Assembly: GCA_964358055.1 (NCBI GenBank)
Contig: CAYHNT010000005.1
Location: 1-50,562, forward strand
DNA: 50,562 nucleotides
Direction: 5' to 3'
DNA from: an uncultured archaeon
GTDB lineage: Archaea; Iainarchaeota; Iainarchaeia; Iainarchaeales; VGJJ01
Made by a program: the position numbers and the translations under genes. Positions 7,347-48,922 of the stretch are shown in pieces. The notes below the pieces were generated by a model. It worked only from the letters and a program-made list of their open reading frames with translations, did not search any database and was not told where the DNA came from. How positions within the stretch are numbered: position 1 is the first letter of the stretch; every line of letters starts with the position of its first letter.

Positions 7347-7631
7347 ATGCCTAAAAAGAAAGTGGACATCCAAAAAGTAAAAAGCGACATTGAGGCCATT
7401 GCGGAGCTTATGGCAAATGTTACGGAAGACACCAGCGTGCCACGGAACATTCGCTCGGCTTTAGATGAGGCCAAAAAAACCATTTTGTCCGCAGTGGACG
7501 ACGTGGCATTGTCGCGCGCGATTTATTTATTGGATGACGTGAGCAACGACATCAATTTACCCGCTCATGCACGCACGGACTTGTGGACGATTATTTCCGA
7601 ACTCGAGACATTGAAAGAAAAGCTCGGGTAG
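7347..7631 (+). CDS. UPF0147 family protein
   Basis: DTSVPRNIR...LDDVSNDINLPAHARTDLW..ISELE signature. Confidence 0.9.
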   Translation: MPKKKVDIQKVKSDIEAIAELMANVTEDTSVPRNIRSALDEAKKTILSAVDDVALSRAIYLLDDVSNDINLPAHARTDLWTIISELETLKEKLG

Positions 7632-7636
7632 TTATC

Positions 7637-10231
7637 GTGAATACGGAAAACACACTCCAACAAGTTGAAAAAAAAGAAACTCCTGTTGTAGAACAGGCTC
7701 CGCTATCTGTGAACGAAATCGTATTGAATTACGCTCAACAGAAAGGAATGATGCTGAACGCGGATGCATTAGAATTGCTCGCACAAACACCTGATTTTCA
7801 CTCCATCCTCAACGAACTCTCCGCAGAAAACGCATTCATTGTTTCACGCGTACACGTTGAACGAAAAATAAAGAAAGTGCTATCATTATACCCCACTCCT
7901 TCGCTTTCTCAAACACCCGAAAGTGTTCCATCACAACCAAAGCCTCTTGCAACGGAATATTCTTCCCATTATCGTATCCTCAATCACCTCAATTACTCGG
8001 GTGCATCCGAATCGAAAGGAAAAGCACTGGATTTTCTCAAATTGTTCCAAGACAAATACACGTTTTTGTTTAACGAACTCAAAAATCGAGGATACCAACC
8101 CCGTTCTTTATCGAAAATCGACCGACAAGGAAGAGACACAGAATTCGATGTCATTGTAATGGTGTCCGAAAAACAAGTCACGAAGAATGGACACGTATTA
8201 TTGAGCGTGGAAGATTTAGAAGGACAAGGAAAAGCACTCATTCCCGCATCCGATGATGCGCTCATTCAGAAAGCCAAACGTATCACGGACGATGATGTAA
8301 TCGGGATGAAATGTAAGCTCGCACGCACGGGAGAATTAATGATTGTGAAAGAATTCTCATGGCCGGACTTGCCTCAGCGAAAACCTAAGACGAGTGAAGT
8401 GGATTTAGGAATAGTCATTACAAGTGACATTCACATTGGAAGCAAACTATTTTTGCGACCGTGGTGGGAAAAATTTATTTCGTGGATGAATAGGGACGTA
8501 GGAACGGACAAAGAAAAGGAACGCGTGGGGAAACTAAAATATTTAGTGATTGCAGGAGATTGTGTTGCTGAATATGAAGAAATACATACAAAAGATGGTA
8601 TAAAAATTGCTAAAAATGTTAAAGTTGATGATTTAGTTTTATCATATGATTTTGCAAAGAAAAAATATGTTTACAAACCAATTACCAAAGTTTGGGATAA
8701 AGGTATCAAAGATGTTTATCGAGTTCATTTTAGAAATGGGCAATGGATTGACGTAACAGATGAACACAATTTTTTAGTCAGAAGTAGTGAGTCGAACAGC
8801 AAAGGGTATATCGAAAAGAAACTGAAAGAAATAGACTTAACGAATATGTATCGACGGAGGGTTCCGATTGCTAAAAAAGTACCGTATGAAATAATTGATG
8901 TTGATTGGTTAAACGAAGACCTTTGCTTCCTTTTAGGTCATTTTTTAGCTGAAGGTTGGATTGAAGGCAGTCATGTATGCACGAGCGGTTATGATTGCCC
9001 AGAACATATTATCCCATTAATAGAAAAAAACAATATCCCATTTGGTGAAGGCGTTAATGGAAACGGCGTACCCATTATTCGTTTCTTGAAAGGTCCCTTT
9101 AAAGATTTTTTAAAAACGACTAAAAAGAATAGTTTTGATATTCATTTGCCTGAGTTTATTTTTCATTTGCCGCCAACTAAATTACAAAAGATAATCGATG
9201 GCTATTTCCTTGGTGATGGAAATAATGGAAACTTTCCAGATAAACGCGGATACAATAGTGCAAAGGGCGATTGTTACTCCACCTCTAGTGAACAATTCGC
9301 ACGCGACTTTCAACGCATTGGTTTGCAATTAGGTCGATCTTTCCACATCTGGAAACAGAAAAATCATAATGGGGCTGGAAAAAAACCAATTTATCGAATT
9401 ACTTACAATCCTAATAGTCACTTTTTGAAAGAGCGAGGGTATTCTGGAATTGGTGAGGTTAGTATATCTTTTATTGAAAAAATTGGCAAGTATCAAACCT
9501 ATGATTGGGAAGTAAAAGATACTCATAATTTTGTTTTCAAAAATGGAATTATTACCCATAATTGCGTCGACGGAATTGGAGTGTATCCCAATCACATTAA
9601 TGAGTTGGAAGTCAAGGATATTTACGAACAATACAAACAATTCGAAGATTACTTGCTACAATTGCCCGATTATTTGGAAATATTCATTACCCCAGGGAAC
9701 CACGACCCGTGTAGATGGCACGATCCGCAACCGCCTGTGCTAAAAGAAATGGTCCCGCGCTTATACAACCAAAAAAACATTCATTTTCTCCCCTCTCCTG
9801 CGTGGGTGGAAATAGAGGGGCAGAAAACGCTCATCTATCATGGTTCCGGATTGATTGGCGGAATGTTTGCCATGAACATTGCCCCTACAAGCCCGGAGGA
9901 AGTCATCAAGGAACTCTTAATCAAACGCGACCTGATGAGCGTGTACGGAACCAAACACCCGTATGCGCCCGAACCCAAAGCCTACATGCTGGTGCGCGAA
10001 CACCCGGACGTGTACATTGGTGGAGACAATCATCACAATGCGTATGCACAATACCGCGGTACCACCATCATCAACAATGGATGTTGGCAAACCACCTCCG
10101 CGTACGCAGCAAGCAAAGGATTCATCAACACTCCCGGGAGAGTTCCTCAATTCTTTTTACAAAACGCCACGCTACGAGAGAGTCGATTTGACAAGGGAGA
10201 AAAAACAAGCGAAGAGGCGCTGCCCCTATGA
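7637..10231 (+). CDS. polB: DNA polymerase D small (proofreading exonuclease) subunit DP1, intein-containing
   Basis: OB fold (TKNGH..VEDLEG) and calcineurin-like motifs SDIHIGS, AGD^CVDGIGVYP, PGNHD, YHG. Stop overlaps the DP2 start (ATGA). Probable GTG start at 7637. Confidence 0.95.
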   Translation: MNTENTLQQVEKKETPVVEQAPLSVNEIVLNYAQQKGMMLNADALELLAQTPDFHSILNELSAENAFIVSRVHVERKIKKVLSLYPTPSLSQTPESVPSQPKPLATEYSSHYRILNHLNYSGASESKGKALDFLKLFQDKYTFLFNELKNRGYQPRSLSKIDRQGRDTEFDVIVMVSEKQVTKNGHVLLSVEDLEGQGKALIPASDDALIQKAKRITDDDVIGMKCKLARTGELMIVKEFSWPDLPQRKPKTSEVDLGIVITSDIHIGSKLFLRPWWEKFISWMNRDVGTDKEKERVGKLKYLVIAGDCVAEYEEIHTKDGIKIAKNVKVDDLVLSYDFAKKKYVYKPITKVWDKGIKDVYRVHFRNGQWIDVTDEHNFLVRSSESNSKGYIEKKLKEIDLTNMYRRRVPIAKKVPYEIIDVDWLNEDLCFLLGHFLAEGWIEGSHVCTSGYDCPEHIIPLIEKNNIPFGEGVNGNGVPIIRFLKGPFKDFLKTTKKNSFDIHLPEFIFHLPPTKLQKIIDGYFLGDGNNGNFPDKRGYNSAKGDCYSTSSEQFARDFQRIGLQLGRSFHIWKQKNHNGAGKKPIYRITYNPNSHFLKERGYSGIGEVSISFIEKIGKYQTYDWEVKDTHNFVFKNGIITHNCVDGIGVYPNHINELEVKDIYEQYKQFEDYLLQLPDYLEIFITPGNHDPCRWHDPQPPVLKEMVPRLYNQKNIHFLPSPAWVEIEGQKTLIYHGSGLIGGMFAMNIAPTSPEEVIKELLIKRDLMSVYGTKHPYAPEPKAYMLVREHPDVYIGGDNHHNAYAQYRGTTIINNGCWQTTSAYAASKGFINTPGRVPQFFLQNATLRESRFDKGEKTSEEALPL
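8561..9562 (+). mobile_element. Intein (334 aa) with LAGLIDADG homing endonuclease in DP1
   Basis: C1 (CVAEYEEI), block B VTDEHNF, LAGLIDADG blocks LLGHFLAEG and IIDGYFLGDG, C-terminal YDWEVKDTHNF...ITHN/C. Removal restores AGDCVDG. Visibly more AT-rich than the flanks. Confidence 0.95.
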
Positions 10232-18444: not shown

Positions 18445-21400
18445 CTAGTCGAACAGCGTCTTCTGTTCCTTGATTTGGGACTCTATTTTCTTCTTTGCGC
18501 CCTTCTCAAACGCTTCTCCTAATTGCTTTTTTACACTCAATGCAGTTGCAACCCCTATCACTTTCGCAAGGTCCTCTGCACGTGTTTTTTTCACATCCGA
18601 GACATTCTTGATTCCCACATTGAACATTTTTCTCGCACGCACACGTCCAATTCCTCGTAATTCGCACAAGAGAATTAATTCCTCTTTGATTCCGCTCGTT
18701 AAGCGCTTGCGCATCTTGGAAATAAGCGGAACATGCTGGGATTTTCCAACTAAAGGAGAAAGTTCTGCTAATGCGTACAACAACCAGTCACCCCTTTGTA
18801 GTTTGTGACGAATCAATCCCGGCGCCACGTTGTATTGTTCCAATAATTCTTGCTCGGGCAACTCATTCATCCATGCTTCAAGGAATTTAGTGGTTTGGAA
18901 CTTCTCCGCAATCTGTCCATCGGCATAAATAGCATCCCGATTGTCTAAAGGAAGCTCTTCCCAACGCGATTGAATCTCCTCCCACACCTCCACTTCCTTT
19001 TTGGCCGAAACATTCACATACGGACGCATTTCCGTAGTATCCGTGAGTGAAAATAACACGGAGAACGTGTTGAGCTTGTCTCGTTTAATTTTTTGAATGA
19101 GTGCATTGGCGGAAAGAGGATCTAAATACAACTCCGCGACACGCTGACCAATTTTAGTAGTACCAAAACGATGTTCTTCTCCATCAATGAACTCTAACTC
19201 GTATAATTCGCGAATTAATGCACGGAGCATCCGCTTCAAGTTGTCCATGTCCTTGTATTGCTGCGCGTAAAGGGTGCGTGAGAAGAAATCATCCATAGTT
19301 TCAATGTCAAACACGTAACGTGAAGCGATAAGTGCGAGCAAATGCATGCGCAGGATGGGCTGAACTCCTAATTTGGAGCTTACTTTCTCCATTTCTCCCA
19401 AAATATAATTGCGCATCACGTCTTCCGCGTCCATTTCGTGCTTGCACAACACAATACTCTCTCCTGCCTTGTCGTATTTGGGTCTTCCAGCGCGCCCCGC
19501 CATCTGTCTATACTCACGTACCGGGATATTTTTCATTCCGGAAAAATCGAAGCGCTGTAGTGATGTAATAATTACACGAAAGGCTGGCATATTTATTCCT
19601 GCTGAATTATGAATTAGAACTCCTTCAGCTGCAAAATAGTGGTCGCTTGAACCGTCTGAAGGCAAGACGACGTCGTAAACGAAAGGATGTTTTTCCGGAC
19701 CTTCAATTGTAATGTTATTGATAAAATCCCAAAAAATGTCCCCTTCAAAGTCACTTTTTCGCCAATTTTCCCTTATCTGTGTCTCTAATTTTTCTCTACA
19801 TATTGGGCACGTTTGCGAAAATAATCCATTTACATCTTGTTTTTCTACTAAAACTTGCTGGAAAACAGTTGTTCCAAGTTGATTGAGCTGCCAAATCTTT
19901 TCATTTCCTTGCCTTATACGACTAACAAGTGCTAAGTGGTGGTCAAGTCGTTTTTCGCCTTTGTATGGAATAAAGCCAAGCACTTTTTGCAGCTCCGCCG
20001 AGCTTGTTGGACCGTTCTTTCCAAGTTCTTCAATTATTTTGAGCTTCTGGGCGCCCCATTTTTTTTGCACATGCGTTCGTCCATCAAAAAGGCTATGATT
20101 CAATTGATAATTGCATGTTGTACATGAAGAATAGTTAATCTCTTTTTGCAGTTTAGTGCAGAGTGCATCGAGTGCTTCTCTTTTACGAGAAAGTCCAAAT
20201 CCAACCTTTTCTCTAAAGTCAATGATGCTTCTTTTTTGTTCAATGACTATTTCATAGCACTTTTTTGTTTGATATGTCCTTTCTCCCATTGTCATTTCAG
20301 ATGGTTCGCGTTCACGCAAGCGTGTGACAATTCCAAAGAATAATAGTGCTTTTTGGATTTGATGAACAAGTTCAACTGAAATATTGCTAAATCCCACTCC
20401 TTTGTTCTTGGTGACATATCCATCGGTGTCGAATACCCCATGAAGCAATGCTTGAATAGACTGAAGGTCGGAGTTTAGCAATTCTTTTGCAATATATTTA
20501 CTTTCGCCTTTTTCGATTCCGCATCGAACCCAGAATTCACGGCACCACTTGTTTTTGCCAAAAAATATGCAAGGGACTCCATATGAATTATTTGATTGTC
20601 GAGTGTGCAACCCGTATTTTTGACAAAACGACAGGATTTTATCGAAAATTTCTGGATCACGACCGACGATGCACGGCTCTGCTTTATAAATAATATTTCC
20701 ATTTCGTGTTTCCGCGCCAGAATATCCGTCTCCTAACATTGCACCGATTACATAGAAATCATCGGTTTGTAAAATGACATCTTTATGAGGTGAAGTGGGA
20801 GAAAAGTCCCCCATTCGAAGAATTTCTCCTTCAGGAGAAGGTAGTTGCCGAACGGTAGCAATCTTGTCTCCAATTTTACACTCTCCGGCGGTTAATGTGA
20901 TTTTTTTTCTGCCTCTTTTGACCAAAAGTTGATGATTTTCAGTAATTGCCAGTTGTCGACCGCTTGTGGAATAGATGGTGACAATATCGCGTTCGTTTGG
21001 AATTTTTATAATATCGTTAGCATTGATATTCACTATTTTATTTCCTTTTAGTGCTAAAAGAGTTCCATTAGCTGCAAAATCTTCTACTTTCACTTCTTCT
21101 TTTCCATTCCAAATTCGAGTTTTAGGGGTAATGCATAATGTAGGGGTTGCGGCGATGGTTTTGATGAGTCCATTTCGAAAATTTTCTTCGACTAGCTCGC
21201 GTTGTCTCGTAACTAACCCCGCGTGATGAAATGCCGCCCCATTTCGCACGAGTCCAGCCAGCTTTTTGCATTGCTCCGTAGGACTTTCGAGTGCGTTTTC
21301 AATCTTTTGAGCCACTTTCTCTAATTGTTTCTTCTCATCTGGGACTAGTTTAGGATTAATGATGATGGCCGACTGCTTGGCCAAACTTTCCGCACGCGGA

Positions 21401-22137
21401 CGCGTGTTGGCAAACACTAACGCTTGCTTTTTTTGGGCGAGCGTATCTTCTAACAACGCTTCTAATGGATCCTCTTTCTTCAATTCCAATTCTTCTTCGC
21501 CTTTGAACACCACTTTCTGGTGAAAATGAACACCTTCTTTCAAGGGAACAGGTCGATAATTGGATTCAATCAATTCGGCTTTCAACCACACACTCAATTC
21601 GTCTGCATTTGGGATAGTGGCGCTCAATGCGACGATTTGAATTTTGGGATTGAGCATGCGCAATTTCGTAATCACCATTTCAAGTGTGGCGCCGCGATCC
21701 GAATCCAACTCGTGTACCTCATCAATAATCAATACGCCTACTTGTTGTAACCATTCGGCACGATGAATAAGCAACGAGTCTAATTTTTCATACGTGGTAA
21801 AAAGAAAATCGTATTGGGAAAGATATTTTGAACTTGAATCCATGTCTCCTGTACTTACGGCCATTTTGATTTGGTGCTTCTCCCCATATTTTTCTTTCAA
21901 ATCCTTGTAGTGTTCCCCGGCGAGCGCACGCAAGGGACACGTGTACATGGCCTTTTTTCCTTTGTTGAGAATAGACTCTAATCCTACAAGTTCGGCGATA
22001 ATGGTTTTTCCACTTGCAGTAGGGGAGGCTATGACCATGTTCTTGTTCTGCCAATCCACCTCCAATACTTTGGACTGCATGGGATTGAACGTGGAAAAAC
22101 CGTTGGCTTCCTTCACTAGCTCAGGGATGGAGGGCAT
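18445..22137 (-). CDS. hel308: Hel308/Hjm Ski2-like DNA helicase, intein-containing
   Basis: SPTASGKT, DEVH, LSAT, AFHHAGL, ATPTL^SAGINMP, QMAGRAGRP, HhH GIGRVRARKMF and PIP-like QKTLFD. Confidence 0.96.
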   Translation of the reverse strand: MPSIPELVKEANGFSTFNPMQSKVLEVDWQNKNMVIASPTASGKTIIAELVGLESILNKGKKAMYTCPLRALAGEHYKDLKEKYGEKHQIKMAVSTGDMDSSSKYLSQYDFLFTTYEKLDSLLIHRAEWLQQVGVLIIDEVHELDSDRGATLEMVITKLRMLNPKIQIVALSATIPNADELSVWLKAELIESNYRPVPLKEGVHFHQKVVFKGEEELELKKEDPLEALLEDTLAQKKQALVFANTRPRAESLAKQSAIIINPKLVPDEKKQLEKVAQKIENALESPTEQCKKLAGLVRNGAAFHHAGLVTRQRELVEENFRNGLIKTIAATPTLCITPKTRIWNGKEEVKVEDFAANGTLLALKGNKIVNINANDIIKIPNERDIVTIYSTSGRQLAITENHQLLVKRGRKKITLTAGECKIGDKIATVRQLPSPEGEILRMGDFSPTSPHKDVILQTDDFYVIGAMLGDGYSGAETRNGNIIYKAEPCIVGRDPEIFDKILSFCQKYGLHTRQSNNSYGVPCIFFGKNKWCREFWVRCGIEKGESKYIAKELLNSDLQSIQALLHGVFDTDGYVTKNKGVGFSNISVELVHQIQKALLFFGIVTRLREREPSEMTMGERTYQTKKCYEIVIEQKRSIIDFREKVGFGLSRKREALDALCTKLQKEINYSSCTTCNYQLNHSLFDGRTHVQKKWGAQKLKIIEELGKNGPTSSAELQKVLGFIPYKGEKRLDHHLALVSRIRQGNEKIWQLNQLGTTVFQQVLVEKQDVNGLFSQTCPICREKLETQIRENWRKSDFEGDIFWDFINNITIEGPEKHPFVYDVVLPSDGSSDHYFAAEGVLIHNSAGINMPAFRVIITSLQRFDFSGMKNIPVREYRQMAGRAGRPKYDKAGESIVLCKHEMDAEDVMRNYILGEMEKVSSKLGVQPILRMHLLALIASRYVFDIETMDDFFSRTLYAQQYKDMDNLKRMLRALIRELYELEFIDGEEHRFGTTKIGQRVAELYLDPLSANALIQKIKRDKLNTFSVLFSLTDTTEMRPYVNVSAKKEVEVWEEIQSRWEELPLDNRDAIYADGQIAEKFQTTKFLEAWMNELPEQELLEQYNVAPGLIRHKLQRGDWLLYALAELSPLVGKSQHVPLISKMRKRLTSGIKEELILLCELRGIGRVRARKMFNVGIKNVSDVKKTRAEDLAKVIGVATALSVKKQLGEAFEKGAKKKIESQIKEQKTLFD
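19606..21135 (-). mobile_element. Intein (510 aa) with LAGLIDADG homing endonuclease in Hel308
   Basis: C1 (CITPKTRI), ITENHQL, VIGAMLGDG and LLHGVFDTDG blocks, VYDV...HYFAAEGVLIHN/S. Removal restores ATPTLSAGIN. Confidence 0.95.
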
Positions 22138-22190: not shown

Positions 22191-23612
22191 CTACTCTAGT
22201 TCCTTATCCTGCTTGTATTCTTTTCCGAGCTTCATCGCCGTAATCGCTTTGTGCAACTCGGCCCCCAAATAAAGCGCGTGATCCTGCTTCATTATCATGT
22301 TCGAGTGTGCGAGGAGCGTGAATAATTCCTCCAATGCCTTCTTCTCATCCAAGTGAGTGTTTTCCCAAGAGAACTGGGTCTTTTCTCCAATGGGAGTGAA
22401 ATGCTGAATGGTAATTTTCTTGGTCTCAGGCTTCACCTGAATCACAAAATTCCCACGAGGATCGGGAGCAAAGCGATAAGAGGAGGGAAGATAGTTTTTG
22501 GCCAGTATTTTCTTGGCCTCCTCCCATTTTGTATCGTAAATGTGCGCCGAAGTGGAGAGCACTATGAGTGAACCCAAGGGAATGTTGGTTTCCGTCGAGA
22601 CTTTTTTCTGCAACTCTCTCCATCCGAATAAATTGAGGGGCCATCCCTCAAACATGTCGTGGCTTCGCACCAAACACGTTTGTTGAAGCTTCCCATGCGA
22701 CACGGACCAAATAACCTCGGTTAAACACGGAGGATTTTTGTCCGAAATATCTTTCTCCGTATGCCACGTCACCGCCACTGCGCGACGCGTGTAGGGGGTT
22801 TTCTTCAAGTAATTAATCGCATGCTCCACTTGATTAATTTCAACCGAACCCGGCCACGCATGGAGGCGCGAACCATAGGTGTACACCACGTTTTCGGGTT
22901 TCTCTGCTGTCAATACTTTTCCTTTGTAATCCTCAAAGTCGCGCGCAGTAAAAGGAAGAAATTCAGGAATACCTGCGTCATCGCCTTCAATCACGCACAA
23001 CAAATTGAGTATCTCTTTCTGCTTGTTCCCATACTCCGTGGGCTTTTCTTCCCCAAACTTCATGATCATGTCTAATAACTGGAGCCAGCCACTCGAAATA
23101 GTGGGCGCACGCACCATGAATCCTTGCTTTTCCGATTGAAAGGTTTGAAATGCAGGAGGCTTGGGCTCAGGAAAAGATTGAGAAGGAGCAAATGCGGAAT
23201 GAGAAGGGAGTGAGGGAAGAATAGTGGTCAATTCATCCATGGGCTTTCCCCGCAAATCAGTCAACTTGACATGTTGACGAAGCATTTCGAGTGATTCACG
23301 TGGAATTTCAGACTGAAAACCAAACGTGGTGCCTTTGACTTTACCATTTTCATCCAATCCATGTTCGAAAAAAGCCGTGATGATATCCCCTGAGTGCGTT
23401 AGGTCCGCGCCGAACAACACCATGTTTCGCCAATGCGGATTTTGCCAAATGGCACGGGAAATAGTGTTGAGTCCATCATAGGAATACAAGTTGGCACATA
23501 CAGCGAACTTTTCCTTATCGAGCTTTTGGGCCACGGGTTGTGCAAGAGTCCAAAACGTACAAATGACGGTCGAAGACTTTAGGTTCCCCTCAATGTAGTG
23601 CTCGCTGCTCAT
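22191..23612 (-). CDS. thyA: Archaeal-type thymidylate synthase fused to an N-terminal MtrA-like and a C-terminal DUF4346-like domain
   Basis: YTYGSRL, TRRAVAVTW, catalytic PPC, RSHD...WPLN, SAHIY; N-terminal NLYS..G...NPHWRNMVLFG; C-terminal DPRGNFVI...HALYLGAEL.KA...YKQD. Confidence 0.85.
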   Translation of the reverse strand: MSSEHYIEGNLKSSTVICTFWTLAQPVAQKLDKEKFAVCANLYSYDGLNTISRAIWQNPHWRNMVLFGADLTHSGDIITAFFEHGLDENGKVKGTTFGFQSEIPRESLEMLRQHVKLTDLRGKPMDELTTILPSLPSHSAFAPSQSFPEPKPPAFQTFQSEKQGFMVRAPTISSGWLQLLDMIMKFGEEKPTEYGNKQKEILNLLCVIEGDDAGIPEFLPFTARDFEDYKGKVLTAEKPENVVYTYGSRLHAWPGSVEINQVEHAINYLKKTPYTRRAVAVTWHTEKDISDKNPPCLTEVIWSVSHGKLQQTCLVRSHDMFEGWPLNLFGWRELQKKVSTETNIPLGSLIVLSTSAHIYDTKWEEAKKILAKNYLPSSYRFAPDPRGNFVIQVKPETKKITIQHFTPIGEKTQFSWENTHLDEKKALEELFTLLAHSNMIMKQDHALYLGAELHKAITAMKLGKEYKQDKELE

Positions 23613-41195: not shown

Positions 41196-42458
41196 ATGAA
41201 CGAAGAAAGCACTCCCTCGAACACGCCCAACGGCACGTATGACGTCATTATTGTGGGAGGTGGACCCGGCGGGGCCTCCACGAGTATGTTTTTGGAGAAA
41301 AAAGGATACAAGGTCCTGTTGTTGGAAAAGGCCAAGTATCCCCGAGACAAGATATGCGGGGACGCCGTATCAGGAAAGAGCGTAGGGATGCTCAAGGAGC
41401 TTGGAATTGAGCACGAAATGGAAACATTAGATAACGCCAAAGTATACGGATTGATTTTCTCCTCACCTGAAGGAAAAATGCTCGAGATTCCTTTCCCTGT
41501 GAAAGAAGCATCGGGTGAAACCAAAGCCCGCGGATATGTTTGTCGAAGATTAGTGTTTGACAATTTCTTATTTTCACACGCCAAGAAGAAAGTGGACGTG
41601 AAGGAACAATTCCAAGTAACGGATTTGATTTGGGAAAACGAAACGGTTGTAGGAATCAAAGGAATGGACATGGTGGCCAAGCAACCCATGGAGTTCCGCT
41701 CCAAGTTTGTCATCGGAGCAGACGGTGCAACATCCATTATTGCCAACAAAGTGAATGCAGAAAAAATTCCAGACGATCACTTATGCATGGCCACACGCGT
41801 ATATTACAAAAACGTCGAAGGCATAACACCCAATATTGAGATTCACTTCGTGGATAGCGTCATGCCTGGATACTTTTGGATTTTCCCATTAGAAAATGGA
41901 ATGGCCAATGTTGGACTTGGAATGGTTTCTAAAGATCGACAGGCACGCAACATGAATTTGGTTGCAGAGACCGAAAAAGTGATTGCAGAGCATCCCTTAT
42001 TCAAAGAACGATTCAAGAATGCCGAAAAATTAGGTGACGTCAAAGGATGGACCCTCCCTTTCGGTTCATTCAAACGCACACTACACGGAAAAGGATGGTT
42101 GTTGATTGGAGACGCCGCATGCTTAGTTGATCCTTTCTCCGGAGAAGGAATTGGGAATGCCATGACCAGTGGAAAATACGCCTCCGAGGCCATTGATCGC
42201 GCCTACAAAGCGAATAACTTTACTCCAGAGTTCATGAAATGGTACGACGAAGAGTTGTGGAAGGAAATCGGTCCCGAATTGAAGACGAGCTTGTTACTTC
42301 AAAAGATGGGACGACACAAGTGGCTATTGAACCTTGTAATAGGAAAAGCCTCCAAGAGCAAAGAAGTCCGCGACACGATATCAGGAATGCTGGTCAATGA
42401 GGAAGCGAGAAAGAGCTTCATCTCACCCATGTTCTACGTGAAGCTCTTGTTCGCGTAA
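41196..42458 (+). CDS. Geranylgeranyl reductase family FAD oxidoreductase
   Basis: GGGPGG, PRDKICGD, GADG, PGYFWIFP and GDAA..VDPFSGEGI. Confidence 0.9.
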   Translation: MNEESTPSNTPNGTYDVIIVGGGPGGASTSMFLEKKGYKVLLLEKAKYPRDKICGDAVSGKSVGMLKELGIEHEMETLDNAKVYGLIFSSPEGKMLEIPFPVKEASGETKARGYVCRRLVFDNFLFSHAKKKVDVKEQFQVTDLIWENETVVGIKGMDMVAKQPMEFRSKFVIGADGATSIIANKVNAEKIPDDHLCMATRVYYKNVEGITPNIEIHFVDSVMPGYFWIFPLENGMANVGLGMVSKDRQARNMNLVAETEKVIAEHPLFKERFKNAEKLGDVKGWTLPFGSFKRTLHGKGWLLIGDAACLVDPFSGEGIGNAMTSGKYASEAIDRAYKANNFTPEFMKWYDEELWKEIGPELKTSLLLQKMGRHKWLLNLVIGKASKSKEVRDTISGMLVNEEARKSFISPMFYVKLLFA

Positions 42459-42506
42459 TTCGAAACGCACCACGCGCTTTTTATTTTCACTCCTATTCAT
42501 CAGAGT

Positions 42507-43232
42507 ATGGCTTCTTCTAAACCTGTTGACGTTTCTATTATCGTATGCACGCTTAATGAGGAAAAGAACATTGTAGGGTGCTTGAAGGCCCTGCGCGATC
42601 AGGATTTCAAAGGAAACTATGAGATCATTGTGGCGGATGGAAACTCGGATGATAACACGGTAAAATTAGCTAAACCGTTGGCAGACGAAATCGTAGTAGA
42701 GAAGCAGCGAAGCATTGCATTCGAACGCCAAGCAGGGGCGAAGCTCGCACGGGGAAAAATAATTGCGTTTACAGATGCTGATTCAAAAGCCCCTAATGAT
42801 TGGGTTCGACACATCAAGGAAACATTCGAAAAGAATCCTCATGTCTCGATGATTTATGGTCCCGTATTCTATTCAGACGTATCAAAGCGCGAACAGTGGC
42901 TCTCTACTTTTTTCATGCCCAAGTTTTTACGCATCATGAGCATTTTGCGCATGCACAACCCCATCGGGAGCAACATTGCTATTCGAAAGAAAGTGTTTGA
43001 ACAAATTGGAGGATTCAACACGGATTACATTACGTGTGAGGATTTGGATTTAGGGAAGCGTGCCAAGGAGCATGGAGATTTACATTATGAAAAATACTTA
43101 CACCAATTTGTCTCCGCACGAAGAGTCAAAAAATGGGGATACTTACGCTACGTTGGATTTCACTTGTTCAATGGGGTGCGTTATCACGCAACAGGAAAGG
43201 CCTCTACAAAATACGAAGACATTCGGGAGTAA
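42507..43232 (+). CDS. Glycosyltransferase family 2
   Basis: SIIVCTLNEE, DGNSDD, FTDAD, EDLD and SARR. Confidence 0.93.
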   Translation: MASSKPVDVSIIVCTLNEEKNIVGCLKALRDQDFKGNYEIIVADGNSDDNTVKLAKPLADEIVVEKQRSIAFERQAGAKLARGKIIAFTDADSKAPNDWVRHIKETFEKNPHVSMIYGPVFYSDVSKREQWLSTFFMPKFLRIMSILRMHNPIGSNIAIRKKVFEQIGGFNTDYITCEDLDLGKRAKEHGDLHYEKYLHQFVSARRVKKWGYLRYVGFHLFNGVRYHATGKASTKYEDIRE

Positions 43233-43267
43233 TTGGGGATTAAAAACAATGCCCGGCTCACACCAGT

Positions 43268-44413
43268 ATGCGTATCGCCATTTTCACGGATTCATTTTGG
43301 CCCCAAATTAACGGGGTCACCACCAGTATCCTGAATACGTGCACTGAGCTTGCCTCGCAAGGTCATGAGTTTCTAATTTTAGCACCTAAACCTAAGCGTT
43401 TTCCTGAGAAACCACCCTCTATTCCTAACACGGAAATCATTTGGCTCCCTGCAGAACCTTTGCCCACGTACACGGATTACTTAATGGCCTATTTGGTCCC
43501 TCCTTCCGCTAAAAAAAAGTTCAAAGAGTTTAACGCAGACGTTGTACACGTACATACTCCCTTCTTTGTCGCTCAAAAAGGAATCAAGTATGCGAAGCAG
43601 CAAGGAATCCCGGTCATCGGAACATTTCACACACTCCTTTCAGAGTTTCTGGAATACGTTCCCATTCCCAAGCTCAAGCACAACCCTATCATGAAACAGC
43701 TCACCTGGAAATACACTCAGCATGTGTATCGAAAATGTGATGTGATTACCACTCCCACGAAAGTGTTAGCCGACGAACTTCAAGCCCATGGTTTTTCTCA
43801 CGTGAAAGTGCTCACGAATGCGATTGACTATGATTTATTTTCAAATGGAAAATCTTCAAGCACAAAAAAGAAATCTAATCTTCTCTACTTTGGTCGTGTT
43901 TCGTTCGAAAAACGCATCGATGTGGCATTAGAAGCATTATATATGCTCACCCAAAAGTATCCTTCCCTTGAAATGAGCATCATTGGCTCCGGTCCCGCAG
44001 AAGAAAGTCTGAAGAAACTCACGCGAGAATTGGGAATCGAAAAGAACGTCCGATTTTGGGGTCCATTGCGCGGTGCTCCATTAGCTCATGCAGTGAAACA
44101 ACACTCCATATTAGTGGCTCCCTCTCCCATGGAGACGCAAGGGTTGTACGTGTTGGAAGGAATGGCGGCCGGATTGTGTGTAGTAGGAGCAGATGCGCGT
44201 GCCATTCCCGTTGCATTAGGTAAAAATGAACGGGGATTGTTGTTTACTCCTGGTGATGCCCAGGATTGTGCGGAAAAAATAGAGAAGGTAATGAAAAATT
44301 CAGCATTGCGAAAGAAGCTTGTCACGAGTGCCCAGAAATGGGTCAAACCGTATGGAAAGAAGGCCATTGCGAAGGAATGGTTGGCACTCTACAATGAAGC
44401 CGCTTCCCAGTAG
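43268..44413 (+). CDS. Glycosyltransferase family 4 (diacylglycerol glucosyltransferase-like)
   Basis: MRIAIFTDSFWPQINGV, HVHTPF, TFHT, GRVSFEK and ETQGLYVLEGMA. Confidence 0.93.
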   Translation: MRIAIFTDSFWPQINGVTTSILNTCTELASQGHEFLILAPKPKRFPEKPPSIPNTEIIWLPAEPLPTYTDYLMAYLVPPSAKKKFKEFNADVVHVHTPFFVAQKGIKYAKQQGIPVIGTFHTLLSEFLEYVPIPKLKHNPIMKQLTWKYTQHVYRKCDVITTPTKVLADELQAHGFSHVKVLTNAIDYDLFSNGKSSSTKKKSNLLYFGRVSFEKRIDVALEALYMLTQKYPSLEMSIIGSGPAEESLKKLTRELGIEKNVRFWGPLRGAPLAHAVKQHSILVAPSPMETQGLYVLEGMAAGLCVVGADARAIPVALGKNERGLLFTPGDAQDCAEKIEKVMKNSALRKKLVTSAQKWVKPYGKKAIAKEWLALYNEAASQ

Positions 44414-44443: not shown

Positions 44444-46156
44444 ATGGCTGCCATTTCTCACGACATTCTCATCATTGGCGCAGGACTTGCAGGGCAGCGC
44501 GCGGCGATTGAGGCGCGCAAGCAAAACATGGATGTGGGATTGGTTTCCAAAGTCCATCCCGTACGTTCCCATTCCGTTGCAGCGGCAGGCGGAATCAACG
44601 CGGCGCTTTCCAAAGATGATAATTGGAAGCAACATTTCAAGGACACCGTGTATGGGAGCGATTTTCTCGCAGATCAGGATGCGGTCGAGATGTTATGCAA
44701 GGATGCCCCTTCGCGTATCATGGAACTCGAAAGCTGGGGCGTTGTTTTTTCACGCACAAATAAGGGAAACATTGCCCAACGCCCGTTCGGCGGGCAAACG
44801 ACTGCCCGCACATGCTATGCATCGGATCGAACCGGACACATGCTTTTGCACACCATGTACGATCAACTGATGAAAGCCAATCCTACCGTTTACCCCGAAT
44901 ATTACGCACTTGCATTGATGATGGACAACCAACACTGCCGCGGGGCCATTCTATGGGACGTTGAAAAAGGAAAACTGATTGCCGCCCACGCCAAGGCCGT
45001 GTTACTGGCCACCGGGGGATACGGAAGGGCTTTCTCCGTTACGAGCAATGCCCGCATATGCACGGGAGACGGGTTGGCGCTTGCGTTTAATGCAGGCCTT
45101 CCTCTAATGGACATGGAATTTGTACAGTTTCATCCCTCAGGAATGTACGGGAAGGGATTTTTGGTGTCGGAAGCCTCGAGGGGAGAAGGCGCGTACCTGC
45201 TTAATGGAAAAAACGAGCGCTTCATGCAAAAATACGCCCCCCAAAAAATGGAACTCGCCTCACGCGATGTGGTGGCGCGTGCTATCTCGACGGAAATCTC
45301 TCAAGGAAGAGGGGCCGGGAACAAAAAGGACCATGTGTTATTGGATGTTCGTCACTTAGGTGAAAAAATAATCATGGAGCGCATTCCCGAAATACGAAAA
45401 ACGGTGCATGAACAATTAGGAATTGATTGCGTGAAGGAACTGATTCCCATTGTTCCAACTGCCCACTATAGTATGGGTGGAATTCCCGTGGACATTCATG
45501 GACGCGTAACGATTGACGCGCATAACACGCCCATCAAAGGATTGTATGCTGCAGGGGAAGTTTCCTGTGTCTCCGTGCACGGCGCAAATCGTTTAGGTGG
45601 AAACTCCTTGCTCGAAACCATTGTGTTTGGTCGCATTGCGGGACAAAAAATGGCAGAGTATGTACGTACACGCTCAACGAGTCCAAAGCACGACGATTCA
45701 TTGGACATGGAACACGCGCGAAAGCGAATTGCGGGAATTTTAGCTCATACGAGTGGAAATAAATCCCATGTCATTCAGGAAAAGCTCCAAGGCGTAATGA
45801 TGCAGGACTGTGGGGTGTACCGAAGCAAGCAAGGACTCACCAATGCCTTGCACGCGTGGAAAAAACTCTCCCTTGAGTCTCAACAAATACACGTGGATGA
45901 CAAATCGAATACGTTTAACACGGATTTGATTGCCGCATTGGAGTGTCAAAACCTATTAGCGTTCAGCCAAGCCATTCTTGCCAGCGCACTTGCACGAAAT
46001 GAAACACGCGGAAGCCACGCGCGCACGGATTATCCACAGCGAGACGATGCAAAATGGTTGAATCACACTCTTGCAACCAAACACGGGGATAATGTTCGTC
46101 TTTCATACAAGCCTGTTGTCATCAAGGGCTATTCTCCGGAAGCGAGGCACTACTAG
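44444..46156 (+). CDS. sdhA: Succinate dehydrogenase/fumarate reductase flavoprotein subunit
   Basis: GAGLAG, covalent-FAD His in RSHSVAAAGG, QFHP, SEASRGEG, LASRD, HYSMGG, HGANRLGGNSL and ETRGSH. Confidence 0.95.
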   Translation: MAAISHDILIIGAGLAGQRAAIEARKQNMDVGLVSKVHPVRSHSVAAAGGINAALSKDDNWKQHFKDTVYGSDFLADQDAVEMLCKDAPSRIMELESWGVVFSRTNKGNIAQRPFGGQTTARTCYASDRTGHMLLHTMYDQLMKANPTVYPEYYALALMMDNQHCRGAILWDVEKGKLIAAHAKAVLLATGGYGRAFSVTSNARICTGDGLALAFNAGLPLMDMEFVQFHPSGMYGKGFLVSEASRGEGAYLLNGKNERFMQKYAPQKMELASRDVVARAISTEISQGRGAGNKKDHVLLDVRHLGEKIIMERIPEIRKTVHEQLGIDCVKELIPIVPTAHYSMGGIPVDIHGRVTIDAHNTPIKGLYAAGEVSCVSVHGANRLGGNSLLETIVFGRIAGQKMAEYVRTRSTSPKHDDSLDMEHARKRIAGILAHTSGNKSHVIQEKLQGVMMQDCGVYRSKQGLTNALHAWKKLSLESQQIHVDDKSNTFNTDLIAALECQNLLAFSQAILASALARNETRGSHARTDYPQRDDAKWLNHTLATKHGDNVRLSYKPVVIKGYSPEARHY

Positions 46157-46157
46157 T

Positions 46158-46976
46158 ATGGCCAAAAATAAAAAAGTGAAAGCAGTGCGAACGAAAAAGA
46201 AACGCACAACTAAAACAGCGAAAGCACGCATCGTTTCCAAGACAATTCCAGAACCCACTCCTCATTGGAACATCCGCGTGTCACGATTCAATCCCCAAAT
46301 GGATTTTGTTCCGCGCACACACGAATACAAGGCTATTCCCCACGAAGGGGAGAGTGTGTTGGACCTACTCACGCGACTCAAACATACCCAAGATGGAAGT
46401 TTGACATTTAGGGGAAGCTGCGGCTACGGTGGATGCGGTTCATGTGGAGTGACGGTGAATGGAAAACCCGTACTCGGATGCGTCACACAAGTAACGGATG
46501 TGCTGGATGCGAATAACAATTTACGTGTTGATCCGTTGAACAAGGAAAACGTCATCAAGGACCTGGTGTGTGATGAGTCGATATTTTTCAAGGAACTATT
46601 GAAAGTCAAGCCATGGCTGGTCACGAGAAAGGGAGAAGAAAGACGAAACCACAAAATGGGAATCAATGATGTGAGCGCGATGAAAGATGCCCCACAATGT
46701 ATTCTATGCGGAATATGCAACGCCCACACGGAATCGTCTAAATTGGGAGAATTGGGCCCTGCGGCGTTCGTAAAGGCCTACCGTTACACCTTTGACAGCC
46801 GTGATGGGGATTCCTCTCGAATACTCGCGCTTGCATCCTCATTACCCGTACACTATTCCCTCGAAAAGGCCAACCTGTGTCCTAGAAACATATTTCCTGG
46901 GGATAAAATAAGTGAAATGCGCGACATTCAAAAAGCCAAGAAGGCTAAAGAGAACAGTCGGAAACGATCCCCATGA
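46158..46976 (+). CDS. sdhB: Succinate dehydrogenase/fumarate reductase iron-sulfur subunit lacking [3Fe-4S] ligands
   Basis: DGSLTFRGSCGYGGCGSC...LGC, VIKDLV.D, CILCGIC, LGPAAF.KAYRY..DSRD and LCP. Start at ATG 46158. Confidence 0.9.
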   Translation: MAKNKKVKAVRTKKKRTTKTAKARIVSKTIPEPTPHWNIRVSRFNPQMDFVPRTHEYKAIPHEGESVLDLLTRLKHTQDGSLTFRGSCGYGGCGSCGVTVNGKPVLGCVTQVTDVLDANNNLRVDPLNKENVIKDLVCDESIFFKELLKVKPWLVTRKGEERRNHKMGINDVSAMKDAPQCILCGICNAHTESSKLGELGPAAFVKAYRYTFDSRDGDSSRILALASSLPVHYSLEKANLCPRNIFPGDKISEMRDIQKAKKAKENSRKRSP

Positions 46977-48451
46977 AGAAAACACGCTCAACGAGGAAAG
47001 AAATGGATGCACTAGGGAGCAAAACAGTTCCACGCGACGCGTACACGGGAATATTCTATTCTCGTGCGAAAGAGAACTTTTCACTCTCAACACGGAGGTT
47101 TCCTCCCGTATTTTATCACCAACTTGCATTACTCAAATACGTCGCGGCACAAGAACACGTGCACGCGAAACGAATCGAACCCAAAGTAGGAAACGCCATT
47201 GTACGCGCGTCACAGGAAACCATGAATGGAAAGTTCGATTCGCTTTTCGACTTGGACGTATTTGAGGCAGGGGCAGGAACTCCACTTAACATGACGATGA
47301 ATGAAGTGATTACGAATCGTGCGCTTGAAATTTTAGGGGAACGAAAAGGAAAATATGCACGCATTCATCCAAACAACCATGTTAACATGATGCAATCCAC
47401 CAATGATGTGATTCCCACTGCGTTACGTTTAACCTGCCTTGCTCTTTCGGAGAAACTAGAGAAGGAATTAATCCAAACCATTCATGTGGCGGAAGAATTA
47501 TCCAAGAAATACGCCCAACGGACTAAAACGGGAAGAACACACATGCAAACTGCTGTTCCTGTGACGTTTGGACAGGAACTCTACACGTATGCACAGTCCC
47601 TCAGGGAAGGATTGACACGCATTCGAGAAGCCAAAACATCCCTTTACGAACTCCAATTAGGAGGAACTGCGGTTGGAACAGGAATCACTACGGTTCCCGG
47701 ATACGACATAGCCGTTGTGAAGCGCCTAAAGCAGAAAACAAAACTACCTTTCTTCCCAAGCCATCGTAAGATGTTTCATACAAGCCATATGAGTGTGTTT
47801 TCCCATTACTCAAACGCACTCTCTGAATTGGCAAGCGAGCTATTGATTTGGGCTAATGATTGGATCCTCTTAGGATCGGATCCCTATGGAGGGATTGGAG
47901 AGGTTCGTTTGCCTGAAGTGGAACCTGGTAGTAGCATCATGCCTGGAAAAATTAATCCCAGCATTTTAGAGGCACTCAAAATGGTGTGCTTACAGGTGCA
48001 AGGGAACCATGAGACTATTCGTTTGAGTGTAGAATCCACCCAATTGGAACTCAACGTCATGACGCCCGTGATGGGAAGTAATTTGTTCGAGTCCCAACAA
48101 ACACTCACCAATGCATTGAGCATGTTTAGGGAAAAATGCTTACGAAAAATAAAACCCACGAACCAAATGACTGTTTTATTAGAAAAAGGAAACGCAGCCG
48201 CCACCGCACTCAATCCCTATTTGGGATACGATGTAACTGCGTACATGGTGAAGAAAGCAATTTCATCTGGACAACCGCTCACCACTATTCTCACGCGTGG
48301 GGGATTAGTTTTGTCTGAAGAAGTGGAGCAGTTAATGAAACCCGAACACTTGACACGACCTTCTGCGATTAACATTTCTCTTAAACAAAAAATTCAATCA
48401 CGCCCCGCCTATAAACGAGCATTGGCATTGGTGCAAAAATTCTCGCGCTAA
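46973..48451 (+). CDS. aspA: Aspartate ammonia-lyase / class II fumarase family (AspA-like)
   Basis: GAGT..NM..NEVI, HPNNHVN..QSTND, GRTHMQ.AVP, GGTAVGTG and GSSIMPGKINP. GAGT and AVP are closer to AspA than to FumC (GSGT, ATP). Confidence 0.75.
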   Translation: MKKTRSTRKEMDALGSKTVPRDAYTGIFYSRAKENFSLSTRRFPPVFYHQLALLKYVAAQEHVHAKRIEPKVGNAIVRASQETMNGKFDSLFDLDVFEAGAGTPLNMTMNEVITNRALEILGERKGKYARIHPNNHVNMMQSTNDVIPTALRLTCLALSEKLEKELIQTIHVAEELSKKYAQRTKTGRTHMQTAVPVTFGQELYTYAQSLREGLTRIREAKTSLYELQLGGTAVGTGITTVPGYDIAVVKRLKQKTKLPFFPSHRKMFHTSHMSVFSHYSNALSELASELLIWANDWILLGSDPYGGIGEVRLPEVEPGSSIMPGKINPSILEALKMVCLQVQGNHETIRLSVESTQLELNVMTPVMGSNLFESQQTLTNALSMFREKCLRKIKPTNQMTVLLEKGNAAATALNPYLGYDVTAYMVKKAISSGQPLTTILTRGGLVLSEEVEQLMKPEHLTRPSAINISLKQKIQSRPAYKRALALVQKFSR

Positions 48452-48490: not shown

Positions 48491-48922
48491 ATGGCTCACC
48501 GGTATTTTACGCTCAACGAGGCGGAGGCACTCCTTCCTAAAGTAAAGAACCACATGACCAAGCTCATGGGGATCCACGACGAGCTCACCGCACTCTCTGG
48601 AGTAAAGGTCCAAGGGGCTGCCGGGTTCGATTGGAACACGCACATGTTAGCAGTCAATATCAACAAGCGCTACCATGAATTATCATTCAAATATTTCGCT
48701 GAACTCGAAGCACTAGGAAGAATGGGATGCTACGTGAAAGATGTTTCACAGGGATTGGTTGATTTTTATTCACGATTGGAAAGCCGAGATATTTTGCTCT
48801 GCTGGCAATACGACGAACCCACCATTCTCTATTTCCACGACGAAAAAACAGGCTTCACGGGAAGAATTCCCATTAATCAGCTCAAAGAAACCTTACTTCA
48901 GCAGCAAAAGGCCCTGCTCTAA
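48491..48922 (+). CDS. DUF2203 family protein
   Basis: RYFTLNEAEALLP...VKD...GLVDF...LCW..DE..I.YFH....GFTGRIPI. Confidence 0.88.
   Translation: MAHRYFTLNEAEALLPKVKNHMTKLMGIHDELTALSGVKVQGAAGFDWNTHMLAVNINKRYHELSFKYFAELEALGRMGCYVKDVSQGLVDFYSRLESRDILLCWQYDEPTILYFHDEKTGFTGRIPINQLKETLLQQQKALL

Follow-up and report, generated by a model that had tools for sequence, protein, structure and literature searches.

A conserved SdhB without [3Fe-4S] ligands, encoded between SdhA and a class II fumarase in one family of Iainarchaeota

Introduction

The described proteins most like the one reported here are the iron-sulfur subunits of Escherichia coli complex II, namely SdhB of succinate:quinone reductase (SQR; 1NEK chain B) and FrdB of quinol:fumarate reductase (QFR; 1KF6 chain B). 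In the ligand assignment of the 1NEK structure, C159, C206 and C212 of SdhB bind the [3Fe-4S] cluster, and C149, C152, C155 and C216 bind the [4Fe-4S] cluster. Here we describe an archaeal sdhB whose product has lost all three ligands of the [3Fe-4S] cluster, with those of [2Fe-2S] and [4Fe-4S] still in place. The gene lies on a stretch of 50,562 nt from an uncultured groundwater member of Iainarchaeota (contig CAYHNT010000005.1 of assembly GCA_964358055.1), which is called the window throughout. Like its E. coli counterparts, it directly follows sdhA, and its product shares with theirs the [2Fe-2S] and [4Fe-4S] ligands and, as modelled, the two-domain fold. In contrast to them, it lacks the three [3Fe-4S] cysteines, the Pro and Trp residues of the quinone pocket and a recognisable anchor subunit, and it is extended by two basic tails, one of about 36 residues and the other of about 26.

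Several systems related to complex II depart from the E. coli arrangement in other ways. The methanogen thiol:fumarate reductase TfrAB is a cytoplasmic archaeal fumarate reductase with no quinone step, and its TfrB subunit carries heterodisulfide-reductase-like CCG domains. In contrast to TfrAB, a CCG-domain iron-sulfur subunit was not found in the source genome of the window, which gave no match to PF02754 even at E <= 1. Shewanella flavocytochrome c3, yeast Osm1 and L-aspartate oxidase (NadB) bind flavin adenine dinucleotide (FAD) non-covalently. They are likewise soluble, quinone-independent relatives of SdhA, and the excerpted text of a complex II review, which lists a three-cluster wire among the cofactors of the complex, names flavocytochrome c, Osm1 and L-aspartate oxidase as soluble homologues, none of them with an iron-sulfur subunit (PMC10238741). 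The archaeal enzyme differs from these proteins in having both an SdhB and the histidine for covalent FAD attachment. The Type E SQR of Sulfolobus and Acidianus (SdhABEF) shares with it a non-canonical third-cluster site in SdhB and the lack of a classical haem anchor. In Type E, according to passages of the source, an added cysteine makes a second [4Fe-4S] cluster replace the [3Fe-4S] cluster, and the CCG-domain protein SdhE is used (PMC3578206), whereas the archaeal protein has an emptied site and its genome encodes no CCG protein.

We found only a faint forerunner of a conserved, anchor-less SdhAB with two clusters, in a single paper on a bacterial genome. The excerpted text of that paper, on Syntrophobacter fumaroxidans, contains the sole mention that we found of a missing [3Fe-4S] motif: the FrdB encoded by frdABEF has [2Fe-2S] and [4Fe-4S] motifs only (PMC3570798). 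The same passages describe SdhAB-1 (Sfum_0172-0174) as "not a conventional Sdh or Frd" and note that no transmembrane gene accompanies it (PMC3570798). For DPANN archaea, the excerpted surveys mention complex II only in Micrarchaeota and Parvarchaeota (PMC8407392), and we found no description of a two-cluster SdhB, although supplements may list such genes as plain sdhA and sdhB.

Results

SdhB retains the ligands of two iron-sulfur clusters

We compared the SdhB of the window with a clade of 36 proteins that are 36-71% identical, and with E. coli SdhB, the closest solved structure (1nek_B, E 3.6e-29, residues 40-256 against 6-231). The gene and its cluster motifs are as follows.

46158..46976, + strand: sdhB, encoding an iron-sulfur subunit of 272 aa in which only the [2Fe-2S] and [4Fe-4S] clusters have their ligands
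46419..46481, + strand: [2Fe-2S] ligand block, C88-x4-C93-x2-C96-x11-C108, with the cysteines invariant in 36/36 clade proteins
46698..46730, + strand: motif 1, CILCGICNAHT, in the 1nek_B alignment with the three [4Fe-4S] cysteines retained and the first [3Fe-4S] cysteine replaced by Thr191
46842..46883, + strand: rebuilt motif 2, LPVHYSLEKANLCP, with Val231 and Lys237 in place of the remaining two [3Fe-4S] cysteines and Cys241-Pro242 kept

The ATG at 46158 stands 1 nt past the sdhA stop and agrees with the N-termini of homologues; the alternative start, TTG at 46071, falls within sdhA. Fer2_3 was the sole Pfam match of the protein (7.7e-26) and no Fer4 or other 4Fe-4S ferredoxin family was matched, unlike in ordinary SdhB proteins. 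The [2Fe-2S] cysteines are encoded at 46419 (C88), 46434 (C93), 46443 (C96) and 46479 (C108). In motif 1, C181 (46698), C184 (46707) and C187 (46716) align with C149, C152 and C155 of E. coli, and T191 (ACG, 46728-46730) takes the position of C159. In motif 2, V231 (46848) stands at C206, K237 (46866) at C212, and the retained C241 (46878) at C216. Only one cysteine, C138, is present besides the ligands, and it is not conserved in the clade. If three of the 11 ligand cysteines were lost at random, the probability of hitting exactly the [3Fe-4S] set would be 1/165. The initial annotation of this DNA had described the [2Fe-2S] motif as complete, the three [3Fe-4S] ligands as lost and the [4Fe-4S] ligands as intact; the alignment to E. 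coli SdhB gives the same picture, and the coordinates given by the annotation for the motifs and the reading frame agree with our recomputed codon positions.

The cysteine pattern is conserved

None of the 36 clade proteins has a cysteine at position 191, 231 or 237. Position 191 is occupied by Ala in 21, Val in six, Thr in five, Ser in three and Pro in one of them. The retained ligands C88, C93, C96, C108, C181, C187 and C241 are invariant (36/36), and C184 is present in 35/36. The segment that has replaced motif 2 is itself conserved, with Y233, L235, A238 and N239 in 33-35 proteins and C241 and P242 in all 36. Median column entropy over the 36 proteins was 0.94 bits in segment 228-246, 1.07 in the core and 2.8 in the tails; the rebuilt segment is thus as conserved as the protein core. 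The pattern extends to P0102, a distant clade member (36% identical) from a second genus. Another 34 cluster representatives, 46-71% identical, came from a search of 5.8 billion proteins; each carries Fer2_3 and none a Fer4 family. No alternative ligand set for a third cluster was seen in the clade, where only eight cysteines are conserved and His232 is replaced in 8/36 proteins.

The ratio of non-synonymous to synonymous substitution (dN/dS) was estimated by the Nei-Gojobori method. Most of the 153 sdhB pairs were saturated and 12 fell within 0.05 < dS < 1.5, and several loci represent the same genomes twice (L011 = L091, L012 = L094, L013 = L098, L014 = L099, L015 = L096). The values ranged from 0.12 to 0.21 overall and were 0.156 (L014-L015, dS 0.49) and 0.123 (L011-L092, dS 1.19) in the two independent unsaturated pairs. 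For comparison, dN/dS was 0.05-0.19 for sdhA and 0.05-0.11 for the fumarase gene. Reading frames were open in the loci used for this analysis, which belong to genus g1.

Independently assembled contigs from two studies, comprising four runs of which one may be the source sample, were compared with the window over 46100-47000. Contigs of three runs, representing both studies, span motif 1 or the rebuilt motif 2, and they showed zero differences. The sdhB pattern is neither decay nor an assembly error, because the lost cysteines are absent from all 36 proteins, the replaced segment is conserved, dN/dS is 0.12-0.21 and contigs from two studies match. The view of the initial annotation, that this is a putative two-cluster electron wire, shortened and not randomly decayed, is therefore supported. 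The signs that it had proposed to look for were also found: the same cysteine pattern in related genomes, with the gene present in 16 of the 17 other genomes of the family, and purifying selection (about 0.16 and 0.12 in the two pairs). Neither other residues as ligands of a third cluster nor an assembly error, both of which it had named as grounds for rejection, came to light. Its guess of a DPANN host was likewise right, as the phylum, Iainarchaeota (Diapherotrites), is a DPANN lineage.

Predicted fold, quinone site and basic tails

An AlphaFold2 model of SdhB, built from a 36-sequence alignment, had a mean predicted local distance difference test score (pLDDT) of 83.6. The best 30 Foldseek matches of the model were SdhB or FrdB chains (E down to 1.8e-15), with template modelling scores of 0.77-0.80, normalised to target length, for the top FrdB and SdhB chains. 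By this model the protein has the overall two-domain fold of SdhB. Its two-cluster content is a deduction from the ligands, because AlphaFold2 leaves clusters out of its models.

The quinone site is altered together with the third cluster site. In the 1nek_B alignment, Glu, Lys and Leu occupy the positions of E. coli Pro160, Trp163 and Trp164, and a 3-residue deletion relative to E. coli SdhB lies just beyond them. In a yeast structure determined by cryo-electron microscopy, the equivalent Pro190 and Trp194 contact ubiquinone, according to the excerpted text of the report (PMC12508127).

The protein as a whole has a net charge of +20, to which two terminal extensions contribute.

46158..46265, + strand: N-terminal tail, residues 1-36, rich in Lys and Arg, net +12, predicted to be disordered (pLDDT 61-63)
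46896..46973, + strand: basic C-terminal helix and tail, residues 247-272, net +5 (helix 247-269 in the model)

An N-terminal tail of at least 10 residues is present in 33 of the 36 clade proteins (median 34 residues; 32% Lys plus Arg, 2% Asp plus Glu), and the C-terminal tail of the clade has a median of 23 residues with 38% Lys plus Arg. Possible roles of the tails are the docking of an acidic partner and binding to membrane or nucleic acid.

sdhB is coupled to sdhA and a class II fumarase gene

The genes on either side of sdhB encode a flavoprotein subunit and a lyase.

44444..46156, + strand: sdhA, 570-aa flavoprotein subunit (FAD_binding_2 2.7e-116, Succ_DH_flav_C 8.2e-41)
46973..48451, + strand: class II fumarase/aspartase-family gene, 492 aa (Lyase_1 1.5e-71, FumaraseC_C 5.1e-11)

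The TGA of sdhB and the ATG of the fumarase gene overlap by 4 nt (ATGA), and by this arrangement sdhB is translationally coupled to both sdhA and the fumarase gene. The fumarase gene holds the same position in L011-L015.

The best solved relative of SdhA is SdhA of Mycobacterium smegmatis Sdh2 (6lum_A, 528 bits). H43, H230, R274, H341 and R383 are invariant in all seven clade SdhA sequences, and by its motifs, which are those of solved succinate dehydrogenases, sdhA appears catalytically intact. The RSHS histidine to which FAD would be covalently attached is kept in 7/7. Residues 41-50 (44564-44593) read RSHSVAAAGG in the same seven sequences, with Ala where solved SdhA chains and bacterial two-cluster operons (6/6) carry Gln. 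E. coli FrdA has Glu at this position, where it is linked to catalytic direction.

Further genes surround this trio.

41196..44413, + strand: geranylgeranyl-reductase-like flavoprotein, GT2 and GT4 glycosyltransferases, upstream of sdhA with short gaps
48491-48922: DUF2203 gene, adjoining the sdh-fumarase operon on its downstream side in both genera

The conserved order is reductase-like flavoprotein, GT2, GT4, sdhA, sdhB, fumarase, DUF2203, methyltransferase and superoxide dismutase; it is kept from the reductase-like gene onward in L011, L012, L014 and L015, and from sdhA onward in L013. In the sister genus (L017) the order is reductase-like flavoprotein, sdhA, sdhB, malic enzyme, fumarase. 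The superoxide dismutase, of the Fe/Mn type, lies three genes downstream, and its position is conserved in related loci. The upstream reductase-like, GT2 and GT4 genes are regarded as context. Two neighbours were considered and rejected as parts of the system: DUF2203 as a third subunit, since it occurs without SdhB in 31/38 genomes of another family (f15), and the reductase-like protein as a partner, since it is not co-distributed with SdhAB. Many families that have no SdhAB contain orthologues of the latter (44-59% identical, about 350-530 bits), and 164/215 genomes match at E <= 1e-20.

Two-cluster sdhB is confined to one family of the phylum

The phylum set comprised 215 genomes, of which 18, including the source genome, belong to the family of the source organism (f1). 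Two-cluster sdhB was found in 16 of the 17 other family genomes (15/16 in the genus and 1/1 in the sister genus), and thus in 17/18 overall. Among the 197 genomes of the phylum outside the family there were only three matches, all weak. Within the phylum, two-cluster sdhB is confined to one family.

Two of the three weakly matching stretches, in G178 and G085, were read and encode ordinary three-cluster SdhB. Their sequences include CIDCFICYDVC...CNVTRCCTESCP and CIHCYACFDTCP...CIMSGCCSEVCP, and Fer4_8 matches both. In one phylum, then, a full cysteine set goes with a membrane-protein neighbour and an emptied site with none. The G178 and G085 genes are distant relatives of the family genes and serve as a contrast; they do not form an ancestor-descendant series with them.

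As a separate observation, the three-cluster sdhB of G178 and G085, which represent two other families of the phylum, is directly followed by a hydrophobic, His-rich open reading frame (ORF; L188:4617-5612 and L189:907-1542). These ORFs, of 331 and 211 aa, match no Pfam family, resemble each other weakly (E 5e-5) and may encode an undescribed anchor of complex II.

A fumarase gene was less regular than sdhB in the family. FumaraseC_C was matched in 14/18 genomes. Of the four without a match, G182, G183 and G185, from species of the same genus, retain sdhA-sdhB, and G184 lacks sdhB as well.

Anchor, respiratory chain and candidate electron partner

The source genome (1.03 Mb, 52 contigs, 95% complete) contains one Fer2_3 gene. 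No Sdh_cyt membrane anchor scored above the cut-off in any of the 18 family genomes, although anchors of unmodelled families could escape this search. A weak Sdh_cyt match in the source genome (contig 6, 16 bits) was rejected as an anchor; it is a Yip1-domain protein. Cytochrome bd, haem-copper oxidase subunit I (COX1) and NuoH had no match in the source genome, and citrate synthase and [FeFe] hydrogenase had none in the 18 family genomes. POR_N of pyruvate:ferredoxin oxidoreductase (PFOR) and Ldh_1_N of lactate/malate dehydrogenase were each found in 2/18, and no PFOR or hydrogenase donor system was found in the source genome. Malic enzyme is encoded there, on a separate contig from sdhAB.

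A dicluster ferredoxin was not found in the source genome, where the single Fer4_7 match sits in a 601-aa ORF. The genome does encode, on contig 23, an 88-aa single-cluster ferredoxin (Fer4_15/Fer4_13) with a net charge of -5, orthologues of which, at 73-91% identity, are present in 15 of the 17 other family genomes.

A bacterial family with the same cysteine pattern

In a profile search of 1.84 billion representatives, three clade representatives came out on top (445-305 bits), followed by a match at 208 bits. Among the best 150 matches, three more representatives, P0142, P0153 and P0165, lack all three [3Fe-4S] cysteines. P0153 stands for the cluster of S. fumaroxidans succinate dehydrogenase subunit B (WP_011697048). 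A search with P0153 gave 120 representatives among the matches listed, of about 214 aa, from Syntrophobacteraceae, Desulfomonile, Desulfovirgula, Desulfotomaculum, Pelotomaculum and other Bacillota. The same pattern, a complete [2Fe-2S] motif, CxxCxxC without the fourth cysteine and a motif 2 with a single Cys-Pro, was present in 104 of the 120 listed; of the other 16, 12 could not be scored by regular expression, two have one extra upstream cysteine each, one has a fourth cysteine in motif 1 and one fails at the [2Fe-2S] motif. The excerpted genome paper says that SdhB-1 lacks the [4Fe-4S] motif too (PMC3570798); contrary to this statement, the four [4Fe-4S] cysteines are present in the representative of the SdhB-1 cluster. 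SdhAB-1 went undetected in a proteome study, according to the excerpted text of its report (PMC5947623).

The S. fumaroxidans SdhAB-1 family resembles the archaeal clade in its pattern of eight cysteines and in having no anchor gene. In contrast to the archaeal proteins, its SdhB, at about 214 aa, is too short for basic tails, its SdhA has Gln rather than Ala (RSHSGAAQGG in 6/6 bacterial operons, RSHSVAAAGG in 7/7 archaeal sequences), and its neighbours are PrpD, AtuA and lyase genes rather than fumarase. Eight metagenome loci were collected for the bacterial neighbourhoods and seven were scanned (L106, L110, L113, L114, L118, L121, L124). MmgE/PrpD adjoined sdhAB in 4/7, AtuA in 2/7 (in L110 together with DUF4387), and an HpcH-type lyase with coenzyme A (CoA) ligase genes in 1/7. 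No redox partner gene recurred across the scanned loci. No ferredoxin was found downstream of bacterial sdhB, where four small ORFs gave one match, to Cu_amine_oxidN1. This gene content suggests that the bacterial family consists of soluble dehydrogenases or reductases for substituted dicarboxylates.

Each two-cluster family alone was well supported in trees (98-99). The archaeal and bacterial families fell on one side of a branch with a support of 84 in FastTree and 39 in an IQ-TREE mixture tree, and in a tree from a second taxon sample they were not together.

Other features of the window

Two replication or repair genes of the window contain inteins: at 7583-10228 the gene for the small subunit of DNA polymerase D (Intein_splicing), and at 18448-22137 that for a helicase resembling Hel308, whose intein has a LAGLIDADG domain. 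A thymidylate-synthase-like protein encoded at 22194-23612 carries a fused PterinBD-DUF4346 domain; elsewhere in the source genome (contig 19, L187:1477-2082) the fusion partner of PterinBD-DUF4346 is a single-cluster ferredoxin domain.

Discussion

Judged from gene content and motifs, sdhB probably encodes a subunit of an anchor-less, cytoplasmic, two-cluster SdhA-SdhB enzyme that would interconvert succinate and fumarate in a branch with fumarase and malic enzyme. Electrons would move along FAD - [2Fe-2S] - [4Fe-4S] - soluble partner without a quinone step, and the last cluster, [4Fe-4S], would trade electrons with a soluble carrier in the cytoplasm. We favour a soluble carrier because the [3Fe-4S] site and the quinone pocket are gone and no anchor was found. 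Together with the coupled fumarase and a malic enzyme, SdhAB would make up a branch of three steps, pyruvate/malate - fumarate - succinate, in a cell that has neither a tricarboxylic acid (TCA) cycle nor a respiratory chain. Given the absent TCA genes, this pyruvate-succinate branch would stand alone rather than belong to a cycle. For SdhAB we infer which clusters it binds, that it is soluble, in which direction it runs and with which partner.

As to physiology, we lean slightly towards ferredoxin-linked fumarate reduction as an electron sink of a fermentative cell. Among the clusters of the canonical complex II chain, [4Fe-4S] is the one with the low potential, and at the end of the wire it would be better matched to low-potential donors than to acceptors that lie above the fumarate/succinate couple. 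Ferredoxin-linked reduction is favoured because of this low potential and because the conserved ferredoxin has a net charge of -5 and SdhB one of +20. Our guess at the donor is this acidic single-cluster ferredoxin of the family, which would dock on the strongly basic SdhB.

Several observations weigh against this proposal. Absences were called from genomes that are 71-96% complete. With POR_N in 2/18 family genomes and [FeFe] hydrogenase in 0/18, there is no obvious source of reduced ferredoxin. G182, G183 and G185 keep sdhB and yet have no fumarase match, and in L016 (668-2125) sdhA-sdhB is directly followed by DUF2203, with no fumarase gene; the three genes therefore need not occur together, and certain lineages may be able to do without the system. 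The histidine for covalent FAD attachment is required by succinate-oxidising enzymes, and its retention leaves succinate oxidation possible. Finally, the superoxide dismutase three genes downstream hints at oxygen exposure.

Some of these points lead to the best of the alternatives, which we nevertheless regard as unlikely, namely that the same soluble two-cluster enzyme runs oxidatively. Host or environmental succinate would be converted to fumarate, malate and, via malic enzyme, pyruvate, and electrons would leave to O2 or some soluble acceptor. The covalent-FAD histidine in 7/7 clade SdhA sequences, the conserved position of superoxide dismutase and the failure to find a PFOR or hydrogenase donor in the source genome all fit this direction, as do the scores of SdhA, which are 485-528 bits against solved SdhA chains and 414 bits against E. 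coli FrdA. However, no acceptor at or above +30 mV was found, cytochrome bd, COX1 and NuoH being unmatched in the source genome, and a low-potential [4Fe-4S] cluster fits the entry of electrons better than their exit.

It is quite improbable that the substrate is a dicarboxylate other than succinate or fumarate. The idea draws on the bacterial look-alike operons, which adjoin MmgE/PrpD (4/7 loci), AtuA (two) and an HpcH-type lyase with CoA-ligase (one). In the archaea, by contrast, the partner is a class II fumarase with a 4-nt overlap, to which the sister genus adds malic enzyme, and the substrate and catalytic motifs of SdhA match those of solved succinate dehydrogenases.

Still less credit attaches to SdhAB as an electron-input module for the geranylgeranyl-reductase-like enzyme, by which succinate oxidation would drive the saturation of membrane lipids. 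The reductase-like gene does lie upstream of sdhA on the same strand in both genera, adjacent in L017 (33-bp gap) and separated by two glycosyltransferase genes in the window, and the reduction of an isolated C=C bond is thermodynamically more favourable than that of fumarate. The reductase is, however, found in 164/215 genomes, in many families without SdhAB, and is not co-distributed with it.

Least credible of all is that sdhB is a decaying remnant or holds a third cluster through non-Cys ligands or another protein: three genomes with sdhB have no fumarase match, and passages of the S. fumaroxidans genome paper propose that clusters of FrdE/F compensate for the missing [3Fe-4S] in FrdABEF (PMC3570798), but dN/dS is 0.12-0.21 with open frames, the pattern holds in 36/36 proteins down to 36% identity, His232 is replaced in 8/36, and the source genome encodes no CCG-domain protein of the FrdE/SdhE type.

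The proposal of a soluble two-cluster SdhAB bears on complex II as a whole, the classification of which rests on membrane anchors. We suggest, tentatively and with some doubt, that two-cluster, anchor-less SdhAB may be an unrecognised class of cytoplasmic complex II relatives that couple fumarate/succinate or related dicarboxylates to low-potential carriers such as ferredoxin. The precise removal of the [3Fe-4S] site behind such a class might have happened in a single event or in several. Its members might be common both among syntrophic and fermentative anaerobes and in one DPANN family, there serving as the main redox sink of a respiration-less cell. If so, an SdhAB ending at [4Fe-4S] would be a natural "truncated wire" that shows which partner taps the low-potential cluster directly, and it would offer a small soluble model for studying [4Fe-4S] free of the [3Fe-4S] signal. 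The pattern occurs in more than 100 bacterial sequence clusters, including those of cultured Syntrophobacter and Pelotomaculum, and is thus open to testing at the bench. For DPANN biology, the proposal would give a function to a redox enzyme that is among the few encoded by a 1-Mb genome with neither a TCA cycle nor a respiratory chain.

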